Source: Lytechinus pictus
Taxonomy: Eukaryota
Reading direction: 5' to 3'
NCBI RefSeq assembly: GCF_037042905.1
Contig: NC_087251.1
Coordinates: 42,658,001 to 42,722,000, forward strand
Length of the DNA stretch: 64,000 bases
Shown: positions 16,906 to 56,596 of the stretch, in pieces
Layout: each line of letters opens with the position of its first letter
Position numbering within the stretch: the first letter of the stretch is position 1
Notes under the pieces: model-generated
Databases searched by the model: none
Told to the model about the DNA's origin: nothing
The model's input: the letters and a program-made list of their open reading frames with translations, nothing else
Program-made: the position numbers and the translations under genes

Positions 16906-17764
16906 ACAAAATAGGCAAACCTCGACTCCTCACTCCACACAAACTTGCTTCTAATTATGTATTTATTATATAACATCAGAAATGGGAGAGCCATTAAACT
17001 TGCATTATATAAAGTTACAAAGACAGGTTACACAATGGACATAAATATAATTTCTCCTAACAATCTAATTGTCATACAACTGATGAACAAACGCGATAGC
17101 CGAGGGGAAAATCTGATTTCTATTAATCAATACATGATGAAAATAAATATAATTTCACCCAACAATGAAATTATTTAACTGATGAACAAATGTGATATCC
17201 TGGGGAAAAGGTGATGTCTATGAATCGATACATATCCATATTAAAGTTTCCACACATTGAGGAGAATCGGCTTCTGATTTACAATGGCAATAAAACGGTG
17301 CCCGCTGGAAGAACAGTTTTCAGAACTAAAGTGGCTACCCTGGGTAAATATTCTGTTATTATTATCATTATTATCAATGGGCCATAAAGATGTTGAGAAA
17401 AGGAGCCCTGATGAGCGTATGAAATAATGTGCTTATCTATCCATGTCTACGGGGGGTGTTGCAAGAAAATATTTGCAATCAATAGCAAATTTCAGATGTA
17501 AATTTACAAAAAAATAGATAAATTGCAACGAAAACAATCACACTCTATTTTTGTTGATACAAGGAGCAGGCCATCAATCAGTTGCAAATTTGCAATGAAA
17601 TGTATGAATTTAAATCGATTTTAGGACCTAAAATAGACTCACAATCATTTACAAGTTTATTGCAACACCTCTTAAGACAATTTAAATACAGGAGACTTTG
17701 CCTATGTCAAATCTCTTGGACATCTGTGTGACTAAGTTGAAATGTGACTATCAAATGATGGCAT

Positions 17765-18578
17765 TTCTTTGAATGCAGAAGAAGCTAGATTGGTCATAGT
17801 AAGGGGTGTTTTTTTTTTTTTTTTACATGCATCACATGTTGATCATAAAAGAAGCTAAATTGACTTGTTTGGGGGTGCTGCTTTGAATGCATTGCTTATT
17901 GTATGTAAAAGAAGTTAGATTAATTGGCATCAGTTAGGGGTGTTTCTTAGAATGCATCACATATTTATTGCAAAAGAAGTTTGATTGGCATTAGTTATGG
18001 GTGTTTCTTTGAACGCATCACTTATTGATTGCAAAAGAAGCTAAATTGACATCAGTTAGAGTGTGTTTCTCTGAATGCATTGCTCATTGATTGCAAAAGA
18101 AACTAGATAGACATCAGTTAGGGGTGTTTCCTTGAATGCATCACTAATTGAATGCAAAAGAAACTAGATTGGCATCAGTTAGGGGTGTTTCTTTGAATGC
18201 ATCACTTATTGATTGCAAAAGAAACTAGATAGACATCAGTTAGGGGTGTTTCGTTGAATGCATCACTTATTGATTGCAAAAGAAGCTAGATTGGCATCAG
18301 TTCGGGTTTTATTTGAATGCATCGCTTATTGATTGCAAAAGAAGCTAAATTGACATAAGTTAGAGTGTATTTCTTTGAATGCATCACTTACTGACTGCAA
18401 AAGAAGCTATAATGACATCAGGGGTGTTTCTTTAAATGCATCGCTTACTGATCGCAAAAGAAGCTAGATTGGCATCAGTTTGGGGGTGTTTCTTTGAATG
18501 CATCTGCTATTGATTGCATTGCTTATTGGATGCAAAAAAGCTAGATTGGCATCAGTTGAGTATATTTTGTTGAACGCA
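17765..18578 (-). repeat. 61-bp tandem array immediately after the WDHD1 stop codon, derived from the terminal coding sequence
   Basis: About 13 units; each - strand unit reads like act gat gcc aat cta gct tct ttt gca atc aat aag tga tgc att caa. Confidence 0.9.
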
Positions 18579-18797
18579 TCATTTACTGAATGCAAAAGCA
18601 GCCAGCTTCGCATTGGTAGCTCCAGTCAGTTTCTTCAAATCTTTCTCAGGTCTCCCAGGCTTGATTCTCTTCTCTTCTCCTTTCTCTGCTTCGTCACCGG
18701 TCCGCTTTCTCTTCTTTTCCGACTGCTTCTTCTCAGGTTGCATGTCTGCATGGTCATTTTGTTTTGTGACCGATTCTGCTGCCTTTTCTTCCATTTC
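18579..18797 (-). CDS. WDHD1: WDHD1 last coding exon (EMEEKAAES...TNAKLAAFAFSK*)
   Basis: tttag acceptor and TGA stop; resembles the human C-terminus TNQKLSAFAFKQE. Summed CDS is 3237 nt, 1078 aa. Confidence 0.93.
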   Translation of the reverse strand, partial: EMEEKAAESVTKQNDHADMQPEKKQSEKKRKRTGDEAEKGEEKRIKPGRPEKDLKKLTGATNAKLAAFAFSK

Positions 18798-19700
18798 CTA
18801 AATGAAAAAAAAAGATTATGAACACAGATTTGGAGATTATCATTTGGGTTTGGAGTGTAGCCTTGTACATAAGAAATGGGGGGGGGGGTGCTTCACAAAG
18901 ATTTTAAGTGTGACTTAGAGTCTCACTTAAATTCATAGTTTTGTGTGGTATAAAATACATCACAACGGTCAAATCATGCTAAGAGGACGCGTCTACTGCA
19001 TATTAATCAATAAGATTACATATCATGTGATTTCCAATAGTTCCCTTTTTCATTTCTGACTTACTTTGTCAATTTCCTCAAAATGAAGAAAGCTAAATTC
19101 AATCAATCAATGTGCACGTTGGCCTTTAAGCATGACTATTTGTGAAAGACCCACTGGACAATACATATTGGTATATTACAGCTCAAATGAAAAAGTATAT
19201 TAAAGGCACAATTGTCAAATTTCCCAGAAAAATGAGAGGGGGACCAAGGCCAATTAACAGGGCATCCACAGTCATTGCCTGTCAGCAATTTGGCTATAAT
19301 TTAGAAGAAATTGAAGAAATAATCATAATCTATAAAGTTTAAATGACTAATGTATCAATTTCAAGGAGAGTGAATAAACAAAGATATCTAAAGGAATCCC
19401 TCACAGTAATAATTGGTACCCTTATTTGTCAAACTGTCAAAAAGTGAGTCTTATACACACAAAATCAGGATGACATTAAAAAGCTTTACATGAGGTTTCA
19501 ACATTGATGCTACCATTTGTGTAAATTAAAGCAGCAAACCCACTGTTCGGAAGGTAGGGCCAAACAATATCATTTCACCCCCCCCCCCCCCTTCTTTGAA
19601 TAGCATGACATCATGTGTCCACACCCAGAGAAGCCACCATTGGCAAACCTATGCCCATGTCTCGCTTCTGCTACGAAGGTGAGATATCAAAAATTATCAC

Positions 19701-19836
19701 CTTCTTTTCATCACTTGACATGTCTTTCCATTTCTGCATTGCCAATTTGATGATCTCGCTCGCACTCAGTTCAGGATTTTCCTCTTCTAACAAGTCACGA
19801 TTTTTGGACAGCCAGAAATTGAAAGCTGATGGCTTC
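19701..19836 (-). CDS. WDHD1: WDHD1 coding exon 22, HMG box (KPSAFNFWLSKNRDLLEEENPELSASEIIKLAMQKWKDMSSDEKK)
   Basis: tccag acceptor and gtgata donor, phase 2 to 0; HMG-box pattern. Confidence 0.94.
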
Positions 19837-20406
19837 CTGGACATAGGATAAAGGACAAAATTTAAAAAAAAATAGAAAATAATATAAGTTTTCAAAGATA
19901 ATATGTTGGGTTTTATGTGATACATTTGATTTATCTATTTCCACATTCCAATAACAAAAGTATATACAAGTGTAATCATTTTTTTTTCTCAGCATACATA
20001 CTATGAAGCAAATGACATAATGAATAACATATGCATAGTTGCATACATACATGTACATTCTAACAATCTACTTGAAATATATCTATACCTGATAAATTTC
20101 TCAATTTTTTTAAAATCATTAAAACAAATAGCAGAAAAAAAATATATATACATATGTCGATATAATACATTTTGGAATAATGGAGACCTCCATCTTATGC
20201 TTAGAGCTTGAAATTGATAAAGGCCTCGAAAGGAAATGGGAAGGAAAACCAGACAAACAGTGCAATACATTGATGGAATTTGGTCTAAGATATATATTGC
20301 AACATAGGCCCTTTTTTCATCAAATGTATATCATGACTTCTGTCTCTATTAAAAAATTTATGTTTATATATGTTTCTTATAAAAATTCACCACGGTTTGT
20401 AGATCT

Positions 20407-20932
20407 GGGCCCCATCTCACAAAAATTCACGATTTATCCGATCAACAACAACTATGGAAAGCCAGCAACGTCAAAATCTAGAATGCATGTTTGTTCAAAA
20501 TATTTTCTAGACATGGCGTAAGTCATACATTCATCGTTTTCTTGAAAATTCAGTGTGATACTCTTTGCTTACAAAGGACACTGTGTACATTTCCTGGAGA
20601 AAGAAATTATGACATTGTTGGATTTCCATAGAGTTGAGGTTGATTGGATCGATCATAACTCTTTGTGAGATGGGGCCCTGGGCCATTTCTTACAAAGAGT
20701 TACGATTGATCCTATCAACCTCAACTATATGGAAATGATGATTCTTCGACAGGAAATTTGCACAATGTACTTATCGCACAAAGAGAAGCAATCAAGAATA
20801 TCAAATCTTTAAAGAAAAAGATAAATGTATGAATATACATCATATCAAACATGCATTTTAGATGTTGGTGTTGCTGGCTTTCCATAGTTGTGGTTGATCG
20901 GATCTATCGCATCTCTTTGTAAGACAGGGACC
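20407..20932. mobile_element. Two adjacent, oppositely oriented copies of the GGCCCC-terminus MITE
   Basis: 20407-20678 and 20680-20932 each carry TIRs; the marker gccagcaac is near the left end of copy 1 and reverse-complemented near the right end of copy 2. Confidence 0.85.
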
Positions 20933-21475
20933 TGAAGCACATACTTACAGAATACCATATATAGAAAGACATGAGTAATACTTTTCATCAGGTTAATCGT
21001 AACAAAAATAAATACAATTCAACCTTGCAAACAGGTGGTGATGGTAGGTAAAGTAATCTCAGCAATAACCTGTAAAGACTACTCAACTCCAAACAAATTA
21101 TGAAATCTATCACATATTTTTAGTAGGATAGAGTATGAAAATAAGGATTATTATGGGTAAAAATAAGAGAATTAACATTTTCACAACAAAGTAGGTAAAA
21201 GTAGGACCAGTTGAACGCCTGCTGTAAGAATTTTTGTTGTTGAAAGTTCCATCTCCAAAGAACATTAATGCTGTATCACAATGCACAGTTAACATGGTTC
21301 ACAGTTTGAAGATCTGTCCTTATCATCACTACTACTTGAACTCCAATAATCGAACAAGAATGTAGAAAGAAAACATTTATCCAATCGCAGTTTATATGAA
21401 CTTCTATCATACCATGCCATAAAACAGTGTTGCAATTAAAATCTTGAATCCTAAACAGAATGTCAATCTACCTAC

Positions 21476-21602
21476 TTTTTGTTTTTAGATGCAGTGCCTG
21501 CTGTATCTGATGGTTGTTTTGCCTTGGAAGTAAACAACGTTGCCTGAGTTCTTGCTTTCGTTGAATCCCCATTGCTTGCTGCGACCTTCTGTGACATCTT
21601 TC
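21476..21602 (-). CDS. WDHD1: WDHD1 coding exon 21 (GKMSQKVAASNGDSTKARTQATLF...)
   Basis: ttgcag acceptor and gtaggt donor, phase 1 to 2. Confidence 0.82.
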
Positions 21603-21765
21603 CTGCAATTTGAGATACGAAATAGAATAGGCATGAAAGTAGGTACTTCCTTGATGTGGTGAGACCAATGTGTAGTGTGAAGCTGATGGACTGGAAGAAG
21701 ACCAAGGTTTCTATGCAGATGTTGACAGTGGATCAGATGGAAAAGGCGAACAGAGTATGTCGGTA

Positions 21766-22200
21766 TAGACCAGTTCGTAGTTACTTCATGGACAATTTTG
21801 GTCAAATGACCTTTCATTTCTTTCATTAAGATAGGCAGATTTCAAAGCAAGATATTACGTATGCATGCCTTACATAGCGGGATGAAGAAATCGAATAGAC
21901 CAGGTGACTAGAATAGCACATCAATGAACAATCTATGAAGGTATTTGTTGCATTTCTACTTTGAATGCATATTATAGCATGTTGTACGATGTACTTGGCA
22001 AACTCTGAAATACCAGTCGTTCGTGGACGCATTGTTGTATTTTTTAAGAGATGTAAATGAAAACACAATTAAAAAGAATGAAGTTGGTGCTTATCTCATT
22101 AAATTTTAAACCACCATGTCACTTTAGTACAAATGACCTTCCTCTGATCATGCGCAACATCATCTGATCATGCGCAGAGTGGAACTATGAAACTGGCTTA
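21766..22200. mobile_element. ~430-bp MITE (TAGACCAGTTCGTAGTT termini); second copy at 30356-30787
   Basis: Two copies align along their length; ends are imperfect inverted repeats. Confidence 0.85.
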
Positions 22201-22261
22201 TTGACATGTGTTGAGGAGGGTTGATCCATGTTGATCATGTTCAGAGAAGGGTGCTTGAGTT

Positions 22262-23530
22262 CAAGATGGCTGGTCAGAGGGGAAGGGGGCGACCGAAGCA
22301 GACATGGAAGTAGCAAGCAGTGGAGGAGAGTAGGAGGGTTGGGTTGAAGGAAGAGGATGGTCAAAGGGGAAGGGGGCGACCGAAGCAGACATGGAAGTAG
22401 CAAGCGGTGAAGTAAAGTAGGAGGGTTGGGTTGAAGGAGGATGGTCAGAGGGGAAGGGGGCGACCGAAGCAGACATGGAAGTAGCAAGCGGTGGAGTAAA
22501 GTAGGAGGGTTGAGTTGGAGGAGAAGGATGGTTAAAGGGGATGGGGGCGACCGAAGCAGACATGGAAGTAGCAAGCAGTGGAGGAGAGTAGGAGGGTTGG
22601 GATGAAGGAAGAGGATGGTCAAAGGGGAAGGGGGCGACCGAAGCAGACATGGAAGTAGCAAGCAGTCGAGAGTAGGGGGTTGGGATGAAGGAGGATGGTA
22701 AGAGGGGAAGGGGGTGACCAAAGAAGACATGGAAGTAGCAAGCGGTGGAGTAAAGTAGGAGGGTTGGGTTGAAGGAGGATGGTCAGAGGGGAAGGGGGCG
22801 ACCGAAGCAGACATGGAAGTAGCAAGCGGTGGAGTAAAGTAGGAGGGTTGAGTTGGAGGAGAAGGATGGTTAAAGGGGATGGGGGCGACCGAAGCAGACA
22901 TGGAAGTAGCAAGCAGTGGAGGAGAGTAGGAGGGTTGGGATGAAGGAAGAGGATGGTCAAAGGGGAAGGGGGCGACCGAAGCAGACATGGAAGTAGCAAG
23001 CAGTCGAGAGTAGGGGGTCGGGATGAAGGAGGATGGTAAGAGGGGAAGGGGGTGACCAAAGAAGACATGGAAGTAGCAAGCGGTGGAGTAAAGTAGGAGG
23101 GTTGGGTTGAAGGAGGATGGTCAGAGGATAAGGGGGCGACCGAAGCAGACATGGAAGTAGCAAGCGGTGGAGTAAAGTAGGAGGGTTGAGTTGGAGGAGA
23201 AGGATGGTTAAAGGGGATGGGGGCGACCGAAGCAGACATGGAAGTAGCAAGCAGTGGAGGAGAGTAGGAGGGTTGGGATGAAGGAAGAGGATGGTCAAAG
23301 GGGAAGGGGGCGACCGAAGCAGACATGGAAGTAGCAAGCAGTCGAGAGTAGGGGGTTGGGATGAAGGAGGATGGTAAGAGGGGAAGGGGGCGACCGAAGC
23401 AGACATGGAAGTAGCAAATGGTGGATGAGACTAGGGTTGGGTTGAAGGAGGATGGTCAGAGGGGAAGGGGGTGACCAAAGAAGACATGGAAAAGGCAAAT
23501 GGTGGATGAGTTGAGGGAGGAGGATGGATG
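22262..23530. repeat. G-rich minisatellite, 80-87-bp units with 338-bp higher-order repeat
   Basis: GACATGGAAGTAGCAAGC recurs about 15 times at spacings 87,84,87,87,80,84,87,87,80... Confidence 0.95.
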
Positions 23531-23808
23531 CACCAAATAGAGTAGAGTGGGTGGTCAATCTAATGTTGACCAATCTGCCAGGATTAACGGGGGAGAAGTG
23601 ACGTCTCAATAAGCGCACAACTTGCAGACGAGTATCATGAAACAAACACATAGTATCAAATTGTATGCTTGGGAACTCCTTGCAAATGACATCTAAGAGA
23701 TCATAAACATATACCATCTTGAACCAAGTGACCCCCCATGTGTACACTCCTCTAATATATTGCTATATTTACTAATCATATATCATTACACCATTGATGT
23801 TATATAAC

Positions 23809-23958
23809 CTGGCTTAAATTGACTCTTCGTGTCGGGTGACTTCTTCTTCATTTCATCAAAGACGTTGGTCCCTCTAGGATTAGATCCTGATCTGTCCTGG
23901 TTCTTCTTGAAAGGATTCCTCCTTCCTTGACTTGAAGGCAGCAGAGATGGAATTTTAT
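23809..23958 (-). CDS. WDHD1: WDHD1 coding exon 20 (DKIPSLLPSSQGRRNPFKK...)
   Basis: tttcatag acceptor; weak cag|gttata donor chosen for phase 1 to 1; GR.NPFK motif. Confidence 0.82.
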
Positions 23959-24609
23959 CTATGAAAGAATGAAAGAAAGATACCATCCCCCCAAGAGGAA
24001 GAAAAAAACTAAAGAATGAATGAAAAATTAAAAATCAAAATCAAATCAAATAAATCATGAAAGCTATCTCTGTTGGTTGAAAAGAAATTATAAAACTTTT
24101 GCTCTCGACATGAAAAGTTTCAAAGAGTTGCCTTGAAATTTCCGGCTACTGACTCAGTGAAGTGACCCAATTTGACCCTAGTGACGTAATGGTGGATAAT
24201 CTGGACATGGACATCCGGAAGCTTGTATCGCCCTCTGAAATTTTTTCTTATGTTGAGGGCAAAAGTTTAATAATTTGTGAATGAAAAAAACAATCAAGTT
24301 TGACTGAGGTTACAGTTGTACCACAAAGAAACTCTGATAAATTATTAGTAATGAAGTAAATCTACAGAAAAAACAGTCATAATTTATCTTTCCCCAGTGA
24401 CCTACTTATATTGGAATCACTATAATCAGTTACATTCCATTCTTGGTAAAAAATAAATATCAAAAGTTATATAAAATTATTAAATTGTTAACACAATCTC
24501 TTAATGATAAGAATGAATAATTGAAGTCGATATCACTATATAGTAATATACAAACAAATCAAACAGCCAAGCGTAAAATGTATATAAAAAAAATATATAT
24601 ATCACTCAC

Positions 24610-24746
24610 CATGTTTGGAATTAAGATTCAATGTGGGGACATTTTCCATTTCTTCCTCGTCTTCTCTGATCTCTGTTTCTTCATCACTCCCATCACCATT
24701 CATCTCATTAGACTGGTGACCAGATCTCACCTGATTTCTTGGATGA
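24610..24746 (-). CDS. WDHD1: WDHD1 coding exon 19 (low-complexity acidic linker)
   Basis: atgcag acceptor and gtgagt donor; phase 2 to 1 fits both neighbours. Confidence 0.85.
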
Positions 24747-25201
24747 CTGCATAGTGCAAAGGATATCAAACACATTCACCATCTACAAATGATATCAATC
24801 TTTAAAGATGATTTAGTATTAAATGTTATTGTTGAATCGGCAGAAAGTTACTTTGCTTATGTACACAGTTTTATATATTGTTTTAATCAGAAAATCTATT
24901 TATTACCTGTTTCATTAAGAGCATCATGCTTCATATTGTTTTGAAGTCTTTAAACACTTTCAATTAATGATGTCAATGATTTGATAATTCAAAGTTTTCA
25001 CTAGTCTCTAGATTTTATTTTGTCTTTGTAACATAAAAAGAAATTTGCTTCAGACTGCTATAATAGCAAGACATGAATGAAAACAAACAAAACAAATAAA
25101 ATACAAGAAATCGAGTAGACATGAAAGGTGCATTTACAAAAGTTGTCTTTATAGTCATGTAAAATGCTCCCAAGTTTACCCCATTTTTTTGTTTTGCTTA
25201 C

Positions 25202-25413
25202 ACTCTGGTATGTTGAATGAATTCTTCTTCCTCTTCCTCTTCCTCTTCTTCTTCCTCATCCATCAATCGGCTGGCCATCTCGCTGAGTTTTTGTGCTAAA
25301 GCCATACGGCGTGATCTACTGGCATACTTGATAGCCAAGCTGACACTTTGATGTGACGTCATCAAGCCACAAACTTCATAAGCGCGAAACTCTCTCTCGG
25401 AACGGCATGCAAG
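25202..25413 (-). CDS. WDHD1: WDHD1 coding exon 18 (LACRSEREFRAYEVC...LAIKYASRSRRMALAQKLSEMA...poly-E)
   Basis: catag acceptor and gtaagc donor, phase 0 to 2; conserved helical region. Confidence 0.95.
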
Positions 25414-26026
25414 CTATGTACAAAGAAAAGTGGGATGGCAAATTCATAGCTCCAATCTAGATCTGGTATTTACAAGGCTAATAACAATTTGCAATGTTAA
25501 GATTTCAATTGACCTTTGACCTCTGTAGACATTTTTAAATACTACTACTACTGATGGTGATGATGATGGTAATGATGATGACGATGATGATGAAGATAAT
25601 TATGATGATGATGATGATAAGAATAATGATAAGTTACATAAATATAGCGGTTATTTTATTCTGTTTCTAAGCGCTTAACATTGCAATTATTATTAATTTT
25701 CTGGCAGGCATTCTCCTGTTGGACAAAGAATTGCTTTTGAATACAAGTAAAAAAATCAATGGTAAATTTAACAAACATATACTCCTAATTGGTTGAAAAT
25801 CAAGATGAATTTGAATTCCGTAGCTGCATTTGATTGTCAAGTACTAAGTTTTGTGTTAACCGGATTTGTCGTTCATGGACCATATTTGGAAGAATACAAA
25901 CTCTTCCCAAAATATTCACCTTTCCACTTCATACAATACAAAAATATGGTATTAATCTGTCTATGGTCCATAGAGACATATATTGGTCTGAAATCCAACT
26001 GATGGAGCAGAAAATGGCAAACTTAC

Positions 26027-26131
26027 AGCGAATAACTTCATGATATTATCTTGTTGTTCTCTCTCCATCTTAGCTTTGATCCTTTCATCGTCAAGATCCT
26101 GGCTCAACAAATTCAGTCTCCAGTAAGCTTC
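26027..26131 (-). CDS. WDHD1: WDHD1 coding exon 17 (EAYWRLNLL...QQDNIMKLFA)
   Basis: tttcag acceptor and gtaagt donor, phase 0 to 0. Confidence 0.92.
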
Positions 26132-26914
26132 CTGAAAGAAAAAGAGAAATTATTGTCATGGGGAAAGTCCATGAATATTTTCCAAAATTAGTATTTAGAA
26201 ATGCACAGTACAATAGTAAAAGATATTAGATCTGAAGATAGATGTTAGTGGAGGAAAGGGGGAGCATATGTTCAAGTTAATTTCATTTAACCAACATCGA
26301 AGTGAATATACAGAGTATAAAACAAAATATGTGTTAAGAATGCACAGGTCAAATTGAAGAAGCATCTTGTTAAATTTGTTCCTTTTGCATATTAAAAAGA
26401 CAATATTTCAAGTTACTGGGCAAACTAATGAAAAAATATCAATAAAAATATACTGCATGTCGACAAGTAGAAAAATGCAACTTGGATTAAAGAGGGTAAT
26501 AGGCTAGGAGGAACAGAATGGACAAAATGAGGAAAGAGGTGGAGGTTTTAACACTACAAGAAGATAACATGTAAAAAAAAAGTTTTTATAAGCACTTATG
26601 GTCATTTTATATTTGCATTATGGAACCGTAATCTTTCACTTCGTAATAATCATTAGCTAAGTACATGCAGATGCACCACATAATGATTTCATGAGGAAAT
26701 CTTCAAATAAAGGTCTAGGTCACCATATCATCACAGATCTAGATCATGTCCAGTTACATAAACTTAACTCTGTGAAATCATGAAATCTAAGCTGAAAACT
26801 GATAACACTGAGAATCACCAACACCAATGAACACACGTGGGACTGCATTGCTACTGCTTGAAAAATGACCCCACATGCGGCTGGCATGTCATGCTTATTA
26901 TGTCCATTTCTAAG

Positions 26915-27160
26915 CAGGCTATGGCACAGTGGAAAACACTCCGTCCCTTGGATTGGACGTTAAATGGAGGCCACGTGTAGAGGAGAGTCACCACCTTTGC
27001 ACGTTAAGAACCCACTGCACTATTCGTATAAGAGTAGGGGAACCCCGATGTAGTGGTCCACCAGCACTCCCCAATCAGACTTGCAGTCATAGTGATTCAG
27101 TTCGCTTTTTGCCTCCCAGGCACAGGTGACGCCAAAAAAAAAAAAACAATGATAATAATA
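26915..27160 (+). mobile_element. 5'-truncated SINE carrying a Deu/Nin-domain-like core
   Basis: ggacgttaaatggagg...cacgttaagaaccc..gcactattcgtataagagtagggg..ccccg resembles the DeuSINE conserved domain as I recall it; followed by an A-rich tail. Confidence 0.7.
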
Positions 27161-27327
27161 ATTACAGAGTTTCTACCTCAATCATTTGGCAAATATTTTC
27201 CATTTACACATACAATGCACTTGGGTGGTCATTTTATTGGATTCTGTTCACACTCACTGTTATTTTAATTGATCGTTTCTACAACTGGCATTTAAATTCA
27301 ATTAGGTGAGGAAGAATATGAACTGAC

Positions 27328-27504
27328 CTCCATTTGACCTTTCTCTGTATTCAGCTCACAGAGTGGAAGCTGAAGCGGGAGGATAGACACCGTTGGACGA
27401 GGTAGAGTTGGAGGAAACGGAGTTCCTTTACATGAAATACATCGGATCTGCTGCTGTTTCTCATGAACTCCCACAATCCAATAGCTGTCAGAATGACCCT
27501 TCGT
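27328..27504 (-). CDS. WDHD1: WDHD1 coding exon 16 (TKGHSDSYWIVG...RCISCKGTPFPPTLPRP...TEKGQME)
   Basis: ggcag acceptor and gtcagt donor, phase 0 to 0; highly conserved AND-1 motif. Confidence 0.96.
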
Positions 27505-28243
27505 CTGCCAAATCAATGACAAGAAAACAAGAAAGTTATTGATACATTGCATCATGCATGCAGTACATTAAATGCAACTTTGTTGACTTTGAAAATCATA
27601 ATGGTCATTGCTAGAAATTCCTTTTGTTAAATTTGATGAATTCTCAAGTGTTAAGACAGAGTTGCCTTAATCCTGAATCTTGTGTTTTTTGTGTGAGTTA
27701 ATAACACACCCTTAGAGAAATATCTGGATGCTCATGCAGCTCTCCAAAGTTTTGAAATGCGAAATCCATCTAGATTAATTTAAACAAAAACCTTAGGTTT
27801 TACTTACCGAAAACTGTGGTCAAATTCCGTTGAAAAACAAGAGGTAATCTAAGAATCATGGAGGAGCATGGCAAGAAATGCTCAAATATGCTTTTTTATG
27901 GAATAAAACATATCTTTGAAAAGTGACTATTTTAAAACCTAATATGAGCTCCTTAATGATTGACTTGATAGATCAATTTGACTAAAAACTTAGTCAATAA
28001 GTGTAGGAATATTTCTATCATATTATCTTGCTTCAAACTGTAAAAATCTCCTGTTGATTTATGAGAACTTACGGTACTTTTGTGTTATATCTATCTAGGG
28101 ATATTCAGAGTAAAAGAGGCATAAAAATTCTTCATCTTTCAGATGGGTCAATATAACCTGACATTTGTTAGGTTTAAGAACAACACTAACACTTTGAAAG
28201 AATAAACATCTAATCTGATTAAGGAATGTATCAGGAAGCTTAC

Positions 28244-28349
28244 ATGATTTTTGGTGTGTGCTACCGGGGTCCACGAGATCAGCTTACGATTAAAGAGTTG
28301 AACAACCCCTCCTGAATCAGCCGTGGCTGCAGTCCCTTCAGCGGTGAAA
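28244..28349 (-). CDS. WDHD1: WDHD1 coding exon 15 (FTAEGTAATADSGGVVQLFNRKLISWTPVAHTKNH)
   Basis: cctag acceptor and gtaagc donor, phase 2 to 0. Confidence 0.93.
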
Positions 28350-29235
28350 CTAGGAATCGAAGCATATAAATTCATCAACCTAATCAATATCGCAGTTTAT
28401 TCTACAATGCCTTAAACCTTGAGAAACAAAAAGCCCAAATTATATTGAATGAATCCTAAGATTACATTTTCATTGCACAAAAAAAAACGAACAGTCAACT
28501 TGTCATATCTAAATTTCAGTTTATTTATAATTCAGTACAGTATCAAAAGACGGTAAAAAAAAAGCCTGCCAATAATTATATGGCTTGAATTGAAACCTTT
28601 CATGAGAAACGGAAGGAATACAGACAGATTCTGGTAAATGTCTCATGAAAAGCAGTCACGGAATTATTAGAAATCCATGCACATTTTATGGTCATTGCTA
28701 GAACAAGCCAGTTTCTTGCATATGATGACCTCGGTGACCTTTGACCTGGTGTCACAAAAATCTAACCACATCATCATTCCCATATATGCATTTAATGCAG
28801 TAATCTGTTTTTATTTTGTACGTATACAACTACCAAACACATAATACACTAACACATACGCAATAAATAGTCACACAAAACATTTTTTTTCGGGGAAAGT
28901 GAATCAGCGGGTTAGGTGAATCACTGGGGGTAAGTGAATCAGTTGAGTGTGTCATGTGTGTTGGTTATGTGCACGCGTGGGCCTAGATAGATGCAAAAGG
29001 GTTTGCCCAATCAATAAAAATCGTCCTGGACGTGGATTATATTCTGTACAGCTCTTCAGTTATTGAAAGAACAGGTCATTATTGTGTATGCAATGACCCT
29101 GCACGCTAAGTAATGACCTAACTGACCTTTGACCTTATTAGCCTCAAATCTAATCAGTCATTTTATTGCGACTCTCACATGCATACAAGAGCCAAGTTTG
29201 AAGGAAAAACAAAAACAGTGTAGACATTTGACCCA

Positions 29236-29544
29236 GGCCCGTATTCTGAAGTCGGGTTTAACTTAAACTTAGGTTTAAAGTTGTGGTTGAAGTATGGATA
29301 GCCAATTGTTACATAAGTCACTAACAGTAGAGATATAATATTTCAGCTTGTTTGGCTCTTAAATCATTCATAATTGTGTAGGAAGTATAAATAAATGATT
29401 GTCTTCACCATCAATGAATCAGGAAAGAGCACAGTAAACATAAGAAACATACTACTTAATAAAAATTTTGACACCTTTGGCTTTCCATAATTTTAGCAGA
29501 GTTAGACAGTGGTCTAAGTTAAACCTGACTTCAGAATACGGGCC
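29236..29544. mobile_element. MITE with ~30-bp TIRs (GGCCCGTATTCTGAAGTC)
   Basis: ggcccgtattctgaagtcgggtttaactta / taagttaaacctgacttcagaatacgggcc. Confidence 0.9.
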
Positions 29545-29580
29545 AATGGGTGGTGTTCTGATAAATAAACCTAGGTTTAA

Positions 29581-30333
29581 CCCTAAATAGACTGGGCTAT
29601 TTTGATGCCTAAGAAGACTGGGGGGGGGCTGATTCAGCCCCCCCCTATGATCTCGACCGTCGACTGCGCGATCGCGACGAAAATTGGCACGTGCATTACC
29701 CATGGCACAATCTCCAAGACTGTAGGATCAAATTTTCCGAAAAATCTCGTAATTCATTAATTATGCTAATTCATGCGTAAAATCAAAGATTTGCTCTAAT
29801 TAACTAAATAAGGCCTCTAAACTGCTAATTTTTCATTCACAGACTCTTTGAAGGATTCTGATCACATGTACTTAAAAAAAAATTCAATATCACAATTCTT
29901 TTCTTATGTATTTTATTGTTTTTAAAATTTCTTATGTATTTCTTTGTTTTTCGACTTTTTGTTTTTTATTGTTTTTTCATTGGAAAGTGTCCGCTACTTT
30001 ATTCTGACCATAAACAAGATGAAATTAATTGAGTTTGATTAGTAAAATTGAAAATAATGATACATTTATGAATTTTGGCTAAAAACACAATTTGCATTGG
30101 ATTTGTACACAAATTCATGTTTTTGAGCAATTTCAGGTCGACATGCACTTACAAAATGTTGCGTAATTTCCGAACCACGTACCCGGGCGTCGCAAATTTG
30201 GTCTCAAAAGTTGCGCAAGACTTGAAAGAAAAAAGTCATGGAACGGCGCGGTGCCAGCTTTTTGCGTTACAGATTTATCGCGAAAAATGTCGAGGGGGGG
30301 GGCTGAATCAGCCCCCCCCCAGTCTTTTTAGGG
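29581..30333. mobile_element. Non-autonomous piggyBac-like element, copy 1
   Basis: TTAA target-site duplication, CCCT...AGGG termini, TIR ccctaaatagactggg / cccagtctttttaggg, no transposase ORF. Confidence 0.88.
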
Positions 30334-31104
30334 TTAACCCTAGTTTAAACTAGAATAGACCAGTTCGGAGTTACTTCATGGACAATTTTGGTCAAACGAC
30401 CTTTCATTTCTTTCATTGTGATAGGCAGCTTTCATAGCAAGATATAACATAAGCATGCTTTACATCGCAGGATGAACAAATTGAATAGACCAGGTGACTA
30501 GAATAGCAAATCAATGAACACTCTATGTAGGTAATTGTTGCATTTCTACTTTGAATGCACATTAGAGAAGTCGTACCATGTACTTGGCAAACTGTGAAAT
30601 ATCAGTCCTTTGTGGACGCATTGTTGTTTTTTGTGGATGTAAATGAAAAACACGATTCAAAAGAATATATGAATAATCAAGACATCAATGTTGGTGCTTA
30701 TCTCATTAAATGTTAAAACCACCATGTCACTTTAGTACCAAGAACCTTTCTCTGATCATGCGCCGAGTGGAACTACGAACAGGCTTTTTTTAAACTACTC
30801 TCCCCTTGAATGCCGGGCTTCCTGATATGTCTTCCATATTCGTGGCACTTATAATGTATCCAGTTAATGACTAAAATTCATAATAATGTTTGTATTTTCC
30901 TCTTCTTCCCATTTCACGACTCAATTAATTCTTTGACATTTTTTTGCAGTAGGATAAGAATGATTTTAAATTGATGAATAAGTTGACAACTAGCATTCCG
31001 TGAAAGTGTGGTTTAAGTTAACCCAGGTTTAGCTAAACTATGGCTTTAGGAATACCAGCAATGCCTCTGGTAGACACCTCCAGCAGGGGCAGACACAATG
31101 TAAA

Positions 31105-31495
31105 GGGTAAATTGCCAATTCGTCTACTGCCAACTCGTCCACTCACCACTTGGTCTACTTTCATTTAGTCTGATGCCATTCCGTCCATCAACATTTCGTC
31201 TAACAACCATTTGGTCTAATCATCACTTCGTCTAATCACCATTTCATCTCATAACCAGTTGGTCTAATATCCATTTTATTTTCATTCATTTTGCACAATT
31301 AACACTTCAGTTCTATTAGACCAAATGGTATATGGACTAAATGGCTATTTGGCCAACTGGTTATTAGACAAAATGGTGAGTGGACGAATTGGCGATTAGA
31401 CCATGTGGATAGTGGACGAACTGATGGTAGACCAAATGATAGTAGACGAGTTGGCAATTGGACGAATTCGCATTAGACGAATTGGAAATAAACCA
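31105..31495. mobile_element. Foldback-type element with inverted arrays of short repeats (TTGGTCTAA / TTAGACCAA); related remnants at ~6560-6900 and ~47280-47545
   Basis: Left half repeats tcgtcta/tggtcta, right half repeats tagacga/tagacca. Confidence 0.75.
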
Positions 31496-31511
31496 ATGTA
31501 CAGTTCCTTAC

Positions 31512-31629
31512 CCAATCCATGATAAAATAGTCTTGGGACTCATCGGTAACCGCCCATCAAACTCTAGATCAGGAGTCTTTTTAAACACAGTCAACAGCTT
31601 TACTCCGATGCACTGATCACCAGGAACAC
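31512..31629 (-). CDS. WDHD1: WDHD1 coding exon 14 (GVPGDQCIGVKLL...LPMSPKTILSWIG)
   Basis: aag acceptor after a T tract, gtaagg donor, phase 1 to 2. Confidence 0.92.
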
Positions 31630-31844
31630 CTTGATATCAAGAAAAAAAAAAGAAGCATATTACAGAAACGTCAAAAACACATTAGCAGAAGATTACCATG
31701 AAGTACACCCTGGACGTCACACAAACAAAATCAAAGTTTTTGCCCTCCCCGGACCTGAGTAAGTTGCCAAGTTTGAGGTAGATGGGTGAAAAGATCTTTT
31801 GTGATCTTGAGAAAAACAGTGTTCTTATTTAACTAACCCTGTGG

Positions 31845-34195
31845 GTTGTAAGATGATATTGAAAGTCATCAGTGGGTTACATAATATTCCATGTCTTTCT
31901 TTGTTGGTTATTACATGATATTCCATATCTACTCTTGTGGGTTATAATAAGATATTCCATGTCCTCTCTTTCTGGTTATAATAAGATATTCCATATTTTC
32001 CTTTGTTGGTTATAACCACGTCTTCCATTTTGGATTATAATATGTTTCATATCTTCTCTTGTGGGTTATAATATTAGATATTCCATGTCTTCTCTTTCTG
32101 GTTATAATAAGATCATCCATATTTTCTTTTGTTGGTTATAATATGATATTCCACATCTTCCATTTTGGATTATAATATGTTTCATATCTTCTCTTGTGGG
32201 TCATAATATTAGATATTCCATGTCTTCTCTTTCAGGTTATAATAAGATATTCCATATTTTCCTTTGTTGGTTATAACCACGTCTTCCATTTTGGATTATA
32301 ATATGTTTCATATCTTCTCTTGTGGGTTATAATAAGATATTCCATGTCCTCTCTTTCTGGTTAAAGTAAGATATTCCATATTTTCCTTTGTTGGTTATAG
32401 CATGATATTCCACGTCTTCCATTTTGGATTATAATATGTTCCATATCTTCTCTTGTGGGTCATAATATTAGATATTCCATGTCTTCTCTTTCTGGTTATA
32501 ATAAGATAATCCATATTTTCTTTTGTTGGTTATAACATGATACTCCATGTCTTCCATTTTGGATTATCATATGATGTTCCATATCTTCTCTTGTGGGTAA
32601 TAATATTAGATATTCCATGTCTTCTCTTTCTAGTTATAATAAGATAATCCCTTTTTTTCCATTGTTGGTTATAACATGATATTCCATGTCTTCCATTTTG
32701 GATCATAATATGATGTTCCATATCTTCTCTTGTGGGTAATAATATTAGATATTCCATGTCTTCTCTTTCTAGTTATAATAAGATAATCCATATTTTCTTT
32801 TGTTGGTTATAACATGATATTCCATGTCTTCTCTTTCTGGTTATAAGATAATCCATATTTTCATTAGTTGGTTATAACATGATATTCCACATCTTCTCTT
32901 TCTGGTTGCAACATGACATTCCATATTTTCCTGTTAGTTATAACATGATACTCCATGTCTTCCATTTTGGATTATCATATGATGTTCCATATCTTCTCTT
33001 GTGGGTAATAATATTAGATATTCCATGTCTTCTCTTTCTAGTTATAATAAGATAATCCCTTTTTTTCCATTGTTGGTTATAACATGATATTCCATGTCTT
33101 CCATTTTGGATCATAATATGATGTTCCATATCTTCTCTTGTGGGTAATAATATTAGATATTCCATGTCTTCTCTTTCTAGTTATAATAAGATAATCCATA
33201 TTTTCTTTTGTTGGTTATAACATGATATTCCATGTCTTCTCTTTCTGGTTATAAGATAATCCATATTTTCATTAGTTGGTTATAACATGATATTCCACAT
33301 CTTCTCTTTCTGGTTGCAACATGACATTCCATATTTTCCTGTTAGTTATAACATGATACTCCATGTCTTCCATTTTGGATTATCATATGATGTTTCATAT
33401 CTTCTCTTGTGGGTCATAATATTAGATATTCCATGTCTTCTCTTTCTGGTTATAAGATAATCCATATTTTCCTTTGTTAGTTATAACATGATATTCCATG
33501 TCTTCCATTTTGGATTATCATATGATGTTCCATATCTTCTCTTGTGGGTCATAATATTAGATATTCCATGTCTTCTCTTTCTGGTTATAAGATAATCCGT
33601 ATTTTCTTTTGTTGGTTATAACATGATATTCCACGTCTTCCATTTTGGATTATAATATGTTCCATATCTTCTCTTGTGGGTCATAATATTAGATATTCCA
33701 TGTCTTCTCTTTCTGGTTATAAGATAATCCATATTTTCCTTTGTTAGTTATAACATGATACTCCATGTCTTCCATTTTGGAGTATCATATGATGTTCCAT
33801 ATCTTCTCTTGTGGGTAATACTCTTAGATATTCCATGTCCTCTCTTTCTAGTTATAAGATAATCCATATTTTCCTTTGTTAGTTATAACATGATATTCCA
33901 CGTCTTCCATTTTGGATTATAATATGTTTCATATCTTCTCTTGTGGGTAATAATATTAGATATTCCATGTCCTCTCTTTCTAGTTATAATAAGATAATCC
34001 ATATTTTCCATTGTTGGTTATAACATGATATTCCATGTCTTCCATTTTGGATTATAACATGATATTCCATATCTTCTCTTGTGGATAATAACATGATATT
34101 CCACGTCTTCTCTTTCTGGTTATAACATAACATTCCATATTTTCCTATGTTAGTTACACCATGATATTTCATGTTTTCTCCTGTGTGATGTAAGA
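31845..34195. repeat. ~34-bp AT-rich satellite with higher-order repeats (including a 408-bp exact duplication)
   Basis: Unit like TTCCATGTCTTCTCTTTCTGGTTATAATAAGATA; identical spurious ORFs at 32530 and 32938. Confidence 0.95.
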
Positions 34196-34214
34196 TAGTA
34201 TTTTATTCACTTAC

Positions 34215-34380
34215 CGACTCCTGCATGATAAGCAACCAATAACTTCTTTCCATATCCAGCCATAGAGATAATAGGTCCCGGTACAGAGAAGACGCCATGT
34301 TGATTACCACTGGTACTATACAACCTCACCAGACGCTTATCGGTTCCGACACCCACCCATCCTTCTCCAAGTCCTAAAAC
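34215..34380 (-). CDS. WDHD1: WDHD1 coding exon 13 (VLGLGEGWVGVGTDKRLVRLYS...FSVPGPIISMAG...)
   Basis: attag acceptor and gtaagt donor, phase 0 to 1. Confidence 0.94.
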
Positions 34381-34721
34381 CTAATAACAACAAAAATACA
34401 AGTTATATCAAGCAAGAAGATGAAAAATATTGGAACTTTGTTTATAATTCATATATAGGCCTATATATTTTTTATATGTATTTACATATAGGCCTAGCTG
34501 TGTGCACCTGAATCGGTAGCCTAGCTTAGCCGGGGTAATAATAATAGCAGGGCCCGCTGGGAGAACAGCTTTCGGAACTGAAGTGGCTACCCTGGGTTAT
34601 ACATTTATAATCATTATTATTAGTAGTAGTATTATAATTAATTATGAATTAATTAATTATAATTAATTATGAATAAAGCACAAAAGTCTAACCATCATCG
34701 TATATCTTCATAGAAATCAGC

Positions 34722-34950
34722 GGGTGAGCAATTGTCGTAAGAGCAAAGGCGTAAGGGCAAATGTCGTAAGATCAAAGGCGTAAGGGCAAATGTCTTAAGA
34801 GCAAAGGCATAAGGGCAATTGTCGTAAGAGCAAATGTCGTAAGAGCATTCATCATGAAAGCGATTGTCGTAAGAGCAATGGTCATAAGAGCAAATGCCGT
34901 ATGAGCAATTGTCATAAGAGCAATTGCCGTAAGAGCAAATGCCGTGGTAG
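34722..34950. repeat. ~15-bp tandem repeat (GAGCAAATGTCGTAA)
   Basis: About 15 degenerate units. Confidence 0.85.
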
Positions 34951-35001
34951 CCTCTTATATCAACCCATTACAATGTCAGCTCAAAGAAATGATACACCCA
35001 C

Positions 35002-35083
35002 CTTGACATTTTCTCCTTTTGGCAATGATGTTGACCATTCTTTCTGGTTATCCCATGAAACAAAGTGGTGACACATCAACAGA
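35002..35083 (-). CDS. WDHD1: WDHD1 coding exon 12 (LLMCHHFVSWDNQKEWSTSLPKGENVK)
   Basis: ttcag acceptor and gtgggt donor, phase 2 to 0; SWD..KEW motif. Confidence 0.93.
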
Positions 35084-35589
35084 CTGAATCATGATAATTG
35101 AAAAATACAAATCAATCAAGAACTTTAATATTGAAAACATTTTCTAAATACTTAATCAAAGCCTATGTTAATGTGACGAGATGCATTATATATAATTTTC
35201 AGTAAAAAAAAATAATTACAACAGTGCATATTAGTCTGTATATAAAGGGCATGTCCCTCAAACTCTCAGGGGGGGAGGCAAGCAGGAGAGGGAGTGTGAG
35301 GGGTGTTTTGATTGACATTTTTTAATGGAATTTTGTGTACTATGATCCCTTTCCGAAGGGGCTGCGGAACGGTTTTGAAAGTGTGGTGGGGGGCTGACCA
35401 TGCAAAAAAATCACAATCAGATGGTCATTTTGGGGTTTTTGTACGCATTTTTTGCCCCCCCCCCCCTCCTCGGCCCGTTTCATACATGAAAAATGTATTT
35501 TATATGGTCAAAAATATGACGAATAAGTCTAAATTCAGACTTAAATCTGAAAAGTGACATTCCTGGCATAGGCATAAAGGAAAGGCTAC

Positions 35590-35774
35590 CTTGGATTTTC
35601 TAAATTGCTCTCAGAAGCAAGCAGGACAGCTTCAGTGGAAAGATCAGCCATGGTGTAGTTATTTTGGTTGTCGAAGTGGAGAGAGTGATGGACAGCCGTA
35701 TCATGGAACTCTACGTCAATAGAGCTTTCATCATCGGTGTCATAGCAACGGACGATTCCAACAGAATTCCATTT
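35590..35774 (-). CDS. WDHD1: WDHD1 coding exon 11 (KWNSVGIVRCYDTDDESSIDVEFHDTAVHH...YTMADLS)
   Basis: ttacag acceptor and gtagcc donor, phase 0 to 2; WNSVG and IDVEFHD conserved motifs. Confidence 0.95.
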
Positions 35775-36165
35775 CTGTAAGTTTGAACAACAATAAATTT
35801 AAAGTTCTATAAGAAATCATCCATTTTTGTTAGTTTGAACAAAAAAATAAAAATAAGCAATTCCATTTCTGTGAGTTCGCACAACAACAAAATCATTCCA
35901 ACAGAATTAAATTCTGTAAGTTTAAACAAAAAATGAATAAACAATGCCAACAGATTAAATTCTGTAATTTGAACCATGACAAAAATATAATTGTGAAAAT
36001 TTTCAATTTCTATAAGTTTAGAAAAAAGTCCTTAAGAATTCTATCTCTGTAATTTTGAAAAATAAAAAAATCCAACAGAATTCCATTTCTATAAGTGTGA
36101 ACAACACAAAATAATAATTCAACAAAAATTTTATTTCTGTAAGTTTGAACAACAACAAAATAAAT
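35775..36165 (-). repeat. Degenerate tandem copies of the WDHD1 exon-11 acceptor region
   Basis: Repeated (+ strand) ccaacagaattccatttctgtaagtttgaacaac-like units, about 8-9 copies. Confidence 0.8.
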
Positions 36166-36343
36166 AAAATTTGCATCCCTTCAATTTTCAAGAAAACAAA
36201 CAAGTAGCAGGGTCCCATTAGACAAAGCTTAGCGATTGATAGTTGTGCCGGTGTTTAAGATTGATCATATACACAATAATCAATGCAGTAAATCATAGAA
36301 ATCAGCATCCAAATCAATCGCTTCGACTGGTTGAAAATCTCAC

Positions 36344-36501
36344 CATGAATCGACTTGAAAGGTGGACAGGTGTGGATGCTGGAATGAATGGTTTCTGCAT
36401 CGGAGTGATTTGAGCAGGGACGGGGGCGCTGAGAACTGGTGGTGGTGCTATGTCAGTCATACCCGAGACACTCTCTGCATCTCCGACCGTCGAAGCACCA
36501 T
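36344..36501 (-). CDS. WDHD1: WDHD1 coding exon 10 (DGASTVG...TPMQKPFIPASTPVHLSSRFM)
   Basis: gacag acceptor and gtgaga donor, phase 1 to 0; QKPF..STP.HL..RFM opens the SepB-like domain. Confidence 0.93.
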
Positions 36502-37130
36502 CTGTCAATGACAATGTCAAGGAGAGATTAACAACATCACTCAACTCTTTTCTGATCACAAATTCTCTCTTTCCTCTTCCTCTTCATCATCTTGTTCTTC
36601 TTGTCTTCCTTCTTCTTCTCAACCTGTTCATGGATACCACTGATTTTTTTATATAACGCATTACGTATGGGGGTATCATTTCGATCTCTTTTCTGTCCAG
36701 AATTGCTGTGGATTAACATAAAGTCGCAAACAATACAAACAGAACAAAATGGATGCGCCCATGCAACTGGGATGATATAAAGTTCCTGGCCTATAAATTC
36801 AAGCAATATATTTGAGAAATCCTGCTCAGTACTATTATCTTCATAGCTCTACTCAATGTTGATATAAGGTTTGAAAATGTAGTATCAAGTGTAGTATCAT
36901 GTGAAAGTTTTGATATATACATCTAGGTAAGGAAATAAAGGCCTTAAACTGGTTGATATTCTCAGTCTTTGGTGACAATGAATTTCTTCTGCTTTACTTT
37001 ATTTTACAGTCCAGCTAAAAGAAATTGCACAGGTGACCGAAGGCCTCGGGCGGGCACGGGTGGACCGCCCATTTCGACTTGGGCCTATCAAATCCAAATT
37101 GAATGAATAAAAAATTGAATTTAAACTTAC

Positions 37131-37350
37131 CTAAAGATGGTGCATCACCCGTGAGCATAGCCAACCTTTGCTTTGCTCGTCTAATCTCTTCATGGACCTT
37201 ATCATCCTCATCATCCTCGTCAACCAAGGCATCTAGTTCATCTTTAGAAATGTCGCCATTGGCTGCTTGTGCCTGGTCGACAGCCTCCAACAGATCTTCA
37301 TCAGCCGCATCATCAAAGAGATCAGCTACTAAGTCATCCATCTCTGATTC
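37131..37350 (-). CDS. WDHD1: WDHD1 coding exon 9, acidic linker (ESEMDDLVADLFDDAADED...)
   Basis: ttacag acceptor and gtaagt donor, phase 0 to 1. Confidence 0.9.
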
Positions 37351-38071
37351 CTGTAATAATATAACATCATTCTCTCTCACCAATAGTAATATTATAGCTC
37401 ACAATTTGCACATTTCACAGTCCTTGTGTGTGAGTTGCACCTCTATCGTGACATGAAATGAACATACTCTGAAATTCTGATGAAATATTCAACATCTAAA
37501 AACACTTGTCTAAAAGATTCTGTTTTATTGCATTTGGTGAATTCCATAATTTTATATTTAAAAAATCATGTACATGAATACATTTACCGGTAGTTTACCT
37601 TTCAGATTAAATTTTCCATTTCTAAAATCAAATCACAGGTTTCAACTTGCTTTTTTAGCCATCAGTATTTTGCCGCATGCCCCTTTTCCGCCTCTTTATT
37701 CTCTCTTTGATGTTATAAATCACTAGTAAGCCAGTCCATCTGCGCACTTTGAAACACCAGTATAGAGCACCTTAAAAATGGTATGATTATTATCAATATC
37801 AACTTAGCTAATGTGGATCGCAAGGTTGAGCAAAATAGGGAACTCATTACAATGAGGGATGAAAGGAATGTATCTTGTTTAACTGAAAGTGAATTGAAGG
37901 AACTGATTGGCTTTTTTTGTTGTTGATTGAATGTTTTAAAGTTATATTTTTATATATTGAATATGTTTGTTTTGTAAATTGGAAAATATATTTTTTAATA
38001 TTTGTATGTGCATTTTTATGCGAATAAAGAAGACTTTGAATTGAATTGAATATTACCATTAAAAGCATTAC

Positions 38072-38213
38072 CTTATTGCTTGGTCTGCCTTGTGAAAAGT
38101 TTATGTCTTCAAAGACTCCAACCATTCCCATAACATCAGTGAAAGCCAATTCATATTTGACCTTTGGGTTCCAAGCCAGACCGCATACTGCAAGCCCCTT
38201 CTTGTGTCTTGAC
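38072..38213 (-). CDS. WDHD1: WDHD1 coding exon 8 (SRHKKGLAVCGLAWNPK...)
   Basis: atag acceptor and gtaatg donor, phase 2 to 0. Confidence 0.93.
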
Positions 38214-39271
38214 CTATCACACACAACAAAAAAACAACAACCGAGATTTCAATTTCGATCATAATAAGATGAGACTATTGCAGTTTTCAGCAAAAATGTC
38301 GTGAAATTAACATAGATTGCATTTTCAAAAAGAAAAAAATCATAAATACATATTACGTACACACATTTTAGCATTTATATAGGACTTTCCATATTAATAT
38401 GCCCAATGCGTTTCACAATATAAAATAACAAAGAATAGTTCTGCTTTCAAAGTGCTTACATTACATGGAGAGGATGCTCAAAAGAAAACAAATTAGGCTG
38501 TGAGACGAACCTCTTTTTCTTGCAATTGTGTTAAAAAAGCAGTGAAGATACAAAATAAAGATATTAAAATTATCTTTAAAACTGCATCAAACTGGGGTAA
38601 ATTTGTTTAAATTTTAGGATGAGTAAACTATGAATAAAGCAGGTAATTTGTATTCTGTTGACAGGTGGACTTGCACCTTTTCGCCAAACTCAGAACAGAT
38701 CCGTGAGCTAAATACGCATTCAGCGACAAACATTCTGTTGCCAATTCAATAGCAAAGTACTGTTCGGAAGTGCTTGAATTAAATTTCAATTGAGTTATTC
38801 CTGGCAGGTATGCTACTCAGAAATGTCCCCAAAATATAATGTAGTTTCTATTTAATAAAAGAATGAATAAACAATGTTTAAAATAAATGCAAAGTGATAA
38901 TAATGAAAGTTAGGATGTAACGTCTAAAGGTTTCCATGGCGAAGAAAAAAAGTGTAGTAGGTTTCACAGTGCACCATGCATCTTTCTTGGGCAAGAGTTG
39001 GTCCTGAAAAGGACCTCCCAAACTTGACGTTTCAACAAGTGTGTTCTTGTCATCTTTCAGGAGAATGAGCAAAGTTTGTAAAAGCAGGCCTTATATATAT
39101 ACTCTGTCGAATTGCTGTATGCACAGTACCTTGCAGGGTACATGTCTCTGATTGGCTGGATAAGTCACATGACATCCACATGACATCCCGCCAAGATTGG
39201 CATGAATGACGAAATTTAGGATATCGTTTCTTTTTCATTACTTTAGGAGGCAGTTTTGTGTTTTGATAGGG

Positions 39272-56595: not shown

Positions 56596-56596
56596 C

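Follow-up and report, generated by a model that had tools for sequence, protein, structure and literature searches.

The 3′ UTR of a sea urchin gene that protein comparison identifies as WDHD1/AND-1 carries, after the stop codon, a tandem array of decayed copies of the gene's own coding end. With high probability this is an old minisatellite specific to the locus (dispersal being checked within the window, i.e. the whole stretch of 64,000 nucleotides that was analysed, and in RNA reads), which is decaying neutrally and in which nothing is selected. It would have begun as one tandem duplication of about 61 bp across the WDHD1 stop codon. As is evident from the anatomy, the first copy keeps both the frame and the stop, so the protein is untouched and the new copy lands in the 3′ UTR. 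Amplification to 13 units would have followed, presumably by slippage or unequal exchange among the copies; the central units were then partly homogenised, with the seed unit and the distal units drifting apart. The copies, to judge from the RNA and codon counts below, are transcribed and decay without codon constraint. The array is older than the split from a related species, organism B, and would retain a serine codon where the gene now has alanine.

The coding end and its copies

The features needed for the argument, all on the minus strand of the window, are the following.

18579..50301, minus strand: WDHD1/AND-1 coding span; about 23 exons, ATG at 50301, stop TGA at 18581-18579
19701..19838, minus strand: penultimate exon, HMG-box-like, spliced to the last exon over a 903-nt intron
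18579..18797, minus strand: coding part of the last exon; 72 aa, ending in TNAKLAAFAFSK and the stop
18558..18618, minus strand: seed unit U0; last 12 codons, TGA and about 21 nt of UTR
18481..18557, minus strand: U1; 77 nt, with an internal duplication of 15-16 nt
17932..18480, minus strand: U2-U10, core copies; 57-65 nt
17756..17931, minus strand: U11-U13, degenerate distal copies; 72-75% identical to the majority sequence
16930..17755, minus strand: rest of the 3′ UTR, transcribed on the gene strand; AATAAA at 17661 and 16967, dispersed repeat at about 17230-17630

The exon map comes from tblastn of the L. pictus and S. purpuratus proteins against the window, one row at E 0.33 being left out, and its edges are approximate. 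Over 20 trimmed exon pieces the window is identical to L. pictus WDHD1 at 934 of 944 amino acids, to that of L. variegatus at 916 of 945 and to that of S. purpuratus at 774 of 914. On these figures the animal is a Lytechinus, nearest to L. pictus though distinct from that record. The SepB-region exon at 25413-25261 matches chains of the human AND-1 structure (E 2e-11) and drew 445 protein matches from a large collection, the best of them Lytechinus pictus WDHD1; the last exon has no match among solved structures. The HMG-box label derives from Pfam PF00505 on the homologues, and its placing on the penultimate exon is a reading of the sequence. At the start of the last exon, at 18798-18796, the window and both Lytechinus protein records have EMEEK, and S. 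purpuratus has EWEEK.

The extreme C-terminus of the protein is conserved. Among the 120 homologues listed of the 445 found, [KR]LxxFxF plus 2-3 residues forms the end of 96, the remaining 24 looking like fragments or forms with other ends, and those with the motif include sea urchins, starfish, fish, birds and mammals. The preliminary description had named a KLxAFAF tail as conserved in AND-1, and an ending of the form [KR]LxxFxF holds from starfish to mammals; the human-type ending that it quoted is the same string that ends several mammalian matches. The tail reads ASFAFNK in L. variegatus, ASFAFKN in S. purpuratus, ASFAFGKD in Diadema and AAFAFSK in both the window and L. pictus, whose tails are identical. 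Because the motif is common to starfish through mammals, the tail is far older than the array and is the array's seed.

In AND-1 homologues the motif (18617-18582 in the window, minus strand) sits behind a poorly conserved linker, and it looks like a candidate short binding motif. Binding of the Pol alpha B-subunit has been assigned to the HMG box of AND-1, and the passages on binding in that paper say nothing on the function of the last AND-1 residues (PMC5717350). A literature search on the tail motif returned unrelated papers only among the best 10 of 24 matches.

Tandem Repeats Finder gives the array a 61-bp period, 11.3 copies and the bounds 17827-18518. Cut on the common core, it consists of the 61-nt U0 followed by 13 copies, U1-U13, to about 17756, with lengths of 57-77 nt except for U13, which is partial at 46 nt; the coordinates and the count of some 13 units of about 61 bp directly after the gene end, as first described, are borne out. 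With head-to-tail units in the range of about 10-100 bp, lying in spliced mRNA after the stop, the array is a 3′ UTR minisatellite by the usual usage. The identity matrix has U5-U9 82-93% identical among themselves and 64-72% identical to U0. U0 itself is 69% identical to the majority sequence of the array, from which it departs at 19 of 61 columns, three of these being fixed in all 13 copies. By identity to the majority sequence the central units are homogenised, and the edge units U0 and U11-U13 are set apart. About 25 nt in the middle of the unit hardly vary from copy to copy, most columns agreeing in 11-13 of 13. U12 carries a long A run. To the eye U13 is probably better explained by the loss of 16 nt from inside the unit, a gap that was not chosen by the global aligner, and its second phenylalanine is hence not counted as kept. 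None of the 11 inner branches of a unit tree was supported, in a bootstrap that had not settled.

Within U0 there is an 8-nt near-repeat 16 nt apart (7/8 identical), at 18594-18571. The duplication inside U1 and the probable deletion of the 16-nt near-repeat interval in U13 form a small record of slippage within the unit.

The likeness between tail and copies that had been reported from the bare sequence is real. U5 (18301-18254, minus strand) reads TDANLASFAINK followed by a stop, and is identical, ungapped, to the gene tail at 38 of 48 nt. Dinucleotide shuffles of the tail against the array gave a mean of 22.5 and a maximum of 30 (n=5,000), and the best ungapped 48-mer match elsewhere in the window reaches 28/48 over 125,864 positions on both strands, so that the observed identity stands above all shuffles and above the rest of the window. 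When only the 36 coding nt are compared, 27 are identical as against a shuffle maximum of 25. The gapped local score of 43 (shuffle mean 12.6, maximum 37, n=10,000) is less clean than the ungapped result; that with U5 is 53, against a shuffle maximum of 30 (n=20,000). In U2-U10 unit nucleotides 1-13 match the gene at only 5-9 of 13 and the next 36 nt at 25-30 of 36; because of the weak match over the first 13 nt, the alignment is least secure over the first four codons.

Four of the nine codon-region differences of U5 are synonymous, as had been counted, and the silent excess is not significant (P for at least four of nine silent = 0.13-0.26). Two of the five amino-acid differences between U5 and the tail are explained by change in the gene, not in the copy, and a silent change in the gene itself would add to the count of four of nine. 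The birth of a minisatellite from the last 12 codons, the stop and about 21 nt of UTR (about 22 nt in the preliminary description, which proposed it) is supported by a tail motif that predates the array and by the place of the array in the 3′ UTR of a spliced mRNA.

Transcription and age of the array

Four of 23 listed RNA runs (X21, X1, X9 and X13) were mapped on 16930-19900 at 80% likeness. X21 gives stranded raw reads, about 6% of the run being used, and the other three give contigs. The mapping filters remove some reads, the calling of a splice joint needs 3 reads, and the differences and pieces reported are part of the total. The joint 18796-19700 is present in all four runs (4 reads in X21, one contig each in X1, X9 and X13); it is ambiguous by 3 nt in the RNA data, and the acceptor at 18798-18796 is known to within that. 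The last splice is thus the normal one in 4/4 runs, and the protein end is unaffected.

Gene-strand depth in X21 is 13-16x over the coding tail, 1.4-4.8x in the array bins and 7-11x further on; opposite-strand depth in the array bins is zero. Coverage extends to about 17030 (bin 17030-17129), and the intron bins 19030-19629 are empty. A spliced X1 contig, 18327-18796 plus 19700-19836, leads from the penultimate exon past the stop and matches the window throughout; other X1 contigs cover 18255-18354, 17574-18050 and 16930-17481, the last without differences. From the stranded depth and the spliced contig, the array is part of a 3′ UTR of at least 1.5 kb, of which it makes up about 0.8 kb, and it is transcribed; with gene-strand reads in every array bin, its presence in the mRNA, which the preliminary description left to RNA data, is shown. 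The dip in X21 depth over the array is unexplained and is counted against the neutral reading. Depth spikes in contigs inside the array, in X9 (363 in bin 18130-18229) and in X1 (344 at 18345), are likewise without explanation. On copy number, which in a VNTR varies among individuals, no joint skipping a unit was seen in the two runs of organism A; joints in organism B may be misregistered units, and no contig spans the array.

Dispersed short repeats in the 3′ UTR (17230-17630) and in the last intron (18830-19029) collect reads and contigs from many other loci. Depth there is on both strands, 104-212x at 17230-17529 and 18-30x at 18830-19029. Five X21 reads link 17452 with 18994, strand to opposite strand, a sign that related copies of the repeat may lie in inverted orientation.

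Organism B differs from the window at 13 of 240 letters in the last exon. Its contigs on the array cover 17835-17960 (12 differences, 7 gaps) and 18173-18401 (24 differences, 4 gaps), and it carries the U1 internal duplication in a slightly shorter form (letters between the joints 18204-18534 and 18204-18456, in X9 and X13, as against 18495-18545 of the window). The array pieces of organism B and their U1 duplication show that the array predates the split of the two species. Differences in the array amount to 24/229 and 12/126, and in other UTR pieces to 7/185, 16/228, 11/163 and 12-13/142. The array is no more conserved between the species than the rest of the UTR, on pieces from organism B that may align to non-orthologous units and so inflate the divergence.

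All 13 copies have the T of a serine codon at the site where the proteins of L. variegatus, S. purpuratus and three Diadema have serine, and those of the window and L. pictus have alanine. With serine T in 13 of 13 copies and serine in the outgroups, the copies would keep the older state, the gene having changed later. Divergence (p) between U0 and U1-U10 is 0.32, among the copies themselves 0.16, and for non-repeat UTR between the species 4-9%. Sister species in Lytechinus have been placed about 3 million years apart (PMC9279360). The age of the array may, as a rough estimate, be on the order of 10 million years. An echinoderm tail alignment against metagenome contigs gave 595 pattern matches, none confirmed, and an exact 28-nt unit gave 0 matches, a collection that is uninformative for sea urchin DNA.

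Do the copies have a function?

The idea that the copies are a store of alternative C-termini finds no support. The lysine of the motif is kept in 0 of 13 copies, and among the full copies both phenylalanines are kept in U7 only. The copied stop is intact in 7 of 12 full copies and lost in 5, where CGA or CAA is present; the series TGA to CGA to CAA would fit CpG deamination. By codon position, 25/156, 24/156 and 13/156 bases at positions 1, 2 and 3 differ from the majority, the reverse of coding constraint. No constraint is visible at the codon level, the silent excess is not significant and no splice into the array is listed. An alternative terminal exon would call for a used acceptor and an intact coding end in each copy; at the low depth available no such joint is listed, and the lysine is absent throughout. 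Readthrough extension into the array was also considered and rejected, as the frame after the TGA ends after 8 codons.

That both species have retained the array, and within the mRNA of an essential gene, would fit a mild function, and the array may have a regulatory side effect. It is unlikely, though, that the array is a multimerised 3′ UTR control element tuning WDHD1 mRNA in eggs or embryos through sites for RNA-binding proteins or microRNAs or through alternative polyadenylation. Its place in the mature mRNA of two species and the near-invariance of the 25-nt core speak for such an element. TGCAAT, which we take to be a 6-mer site of the miR-92 family, occurs in 7 units, and AATAAA arose in U4 (18313) and U10 (17969). 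However, a tandem unit repeats whatever motif it holds, and by estimate a chance 6-mer match to some microRNA is to be expected in 61 nt. RNA continues past both internal AATAAA (at low depth), and no pile-up of RNA ends is among those listed in the four runs, also at low depth. The array RNA folds no better than chance (z = +0.63, with 15 of 20 shuffles folding as well), an Rfam search of the array found 0 matches at E up to 1, and divergence from organism B is no lower than that of other UTR. The proposal of a multimerised regulatory element, made from the sequence at the outset, accordingly finds no support in folding, Rfam or divergence.

A weaker form of the earlier idea on C-termini is that short gene-conversion tracts between the array and the coding tail feed substitutions into variable positions of the motif, and it is decidedly improbable. 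What speaks for it is the second-last codon, which is AGT (Ser) in the gene of the window and in U2 and U3, and AAT (Asn) in 11 of 13 copies, with Asn also in L. variegatus; U7 reads S-F-A-F-N at these codons, like L. variegatus. With either polarity a derived base is common to the gene and some copies, and either polarity therefore needs a parallel change or a short gene-array conversion. But the evidence is one transition, and the transition partner is found in at least one copy at 19 of 36 coding columns and in at least two copies at 10 of 36, so that parallel change is common. The serine to alanine change of the gene is found in 0 of 13 copies, U0, with its departures at 19 of 61 columns, has stayed outside the homogenisation of the array, a swap of a whole unit would cost the lysine, and the unit tree has no supported branch to offer. 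A bolder view is that non-coding copies steer the evolution of the C-terminal motif by short gene conversion, the Ser/Asn codon being such an event, and, more widely, that arrays at gene ends or exon ends in the genome are local archives of older coding states; this we regard as very unlikely.

Cryptic splice sites in the copies, giving alternative last exons or a UTR intron, have next to no probability. Several units do contain acceptor-like pyrimidine-AG sites, such as that at 18394 in U3, whose 9 pyrimidines of 12 lie within the 6-12 range of the approximate true sites, and there is a donor-like site at 18391 in U3. However, the only splice-ended joint in the four runs is 18796-19700, none being listed into or within the array at its low depth, and the predicted products are without the conserved motif; with an X21 array depth of 1.4-4.8 and a minimum of 3 reads for a joint, rare spliced forms would be missed. 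Equally close to negligible is the chance that the 61-bp unit is a family of dispersed repeats, inserted at this locus, which either looks like the gene tail or was its source. The two unexplained depth spikes at 80% likeness could be cited in its favour, but against it stand a tail motif common to starfish and vertebrates, a best match of 28/48 elsewhere in the 64-kb window, and the reads on both strands at true dispersed repeats nearby where the array has zero opposite-strand depth.

The stop-spanning array and known repeat systems

Set beside these alternatives, the reading of a neutrally decaying minisatellite also agrees with the local base rate. Arrays of 10 or more copies with a period of at least 29 number six; together they make up 10.8% of the window, and four lie within the WDHD1 transcription unit. 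With six large minisatellites in the window, it is unsurprising that one spans a stop. This density, one array in 10.7 kb, means that for about 0.6% of genes, or about a hundred per such genome, the stop would fall within a 60-bp seed, one 64-kb window being the base of this estimate.

Echoes were found at 1 of 46 WDHD1 exon edges. Among intron positions they number 243 of 1,030, and 66 of 846 once the three big intronic arrays are set aside. Since the rate at exon edges is below that in introns, there is no sign of boundary targeting in WDHD1, and enrichment of echoes at exon edges was rejected, on edges that are approximate, from tblastn. The urchin unit lies 180 nt inside the last exon, and 0 of 45 other exon edges are copied within 1.5 kb.

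Other elements in the window are of some interest. A second, younger minisatellite, of 13 copies of 65 bp, lies at 16080-16923, and some of its runs are 94-100% alike; it starts at the point where WDHD1 3′ UTR coverage stops, and one X1 contig goes 15 nt past 16930 towards it. Its unit does not resemble that of 61 bp (local scores 11 and 15). Three further large minisatellites, in introns of WDHD1, are at 22263-23491 (period 87), 31879-34178 (34/135) and 48982-49857 (29); the 34/135-bp array starts 35 nt past an exon end and is not a copy of that junction. At 56508-57511 a 43-copy ATG/CAT microsatellite abuts a 34-bp minisatellite whose unit has CATCTCATC-like pieces, as if one repeat grew from the other. 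On the plus strand, open frames at 1338-1700, 3525-3782, 4131-4391, 6004-6306 and 9608-9982 have the look of exons; they would belong to another gene, whose product would have a membrane segment and stretches resembling coiled coil.

If it is neutral, the array is a clean example of a safe site for duplication. A duplication across a stop is harmless by geometry: the repeat spares the protein and lengthens the 3′ UTR. It is also a small molecular fossil, its copies holding the older serine where the gene now has alanine. It should be useful to annotators and for counts of mirage-type repeats in echinoderms, and would be no surprise to a specialist. Its weight would grow with a demonstration of gene conversion from copy to coding tail or of a role in the control of maternal mRNA. 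A search of titles and the starts of abstracts, with few subscription journals covered, turned up no report of this locus or of any animal minisatellite that spans a stop.

The 40-bp repeat of human SLC6A3 is a 3′ UTR VNTR, and is like the urchin array in being a minisatellite in the untranslated tail of an mRNA. We know of no derivation of the SLC6A3 repeat from the gene's own coding end.

Closer in kind, on the passages of the report used here, is the 37-bp VNTR in intron 7 of human F7, with similar arrays in 6-16, CBS, LMNB2 and PDGF (PMC1557585). In these, as in the urchin array, the first monomer holds a real gene signal that is repeated downstream, and the first signal is the one normally used. 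The arrays of the F7 type repeat a splice donor, with copies that are identical there and polymorphic in number (PMC1557585), whereas the urchin array repeats a stop codon and its copies are old (p = 0.32 from the seed), 5 of 12 being without the stop.

The nearest parallel is with the mirage minisatellites of amphioxus, described in Adh3, the globins BflGb6 and BflGb9, troponin C and PGBD5 (PMC3087553, PMC3902484). According to the relevant passages of the same two reports these are tandem copies of exon-intron boundaries, present without disturbance of splicing, variable in length, and homogenised in the middle but not at the edges (PMC3087553, PMC3902484). The urchin array is like them in that its first unit is a working part of the gene, its copies are local and in tandem and the mRNA is normal, mirage units being 10-160 bp; in the urchin, too, the central units are homogenised and the edge units left out. 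It is unlike them in where the unit falls, for mirage copies are intronic and come from an exon-intron boundary, whereas those in the urchin lie in the mature 3′ UTR. Because what its unit spans is a stop codon rather than a splice junction, the array is not a mirage by definition, and it is best read, by analogy, as the stop-codon counterpart of the amphioxus mirage repeats.
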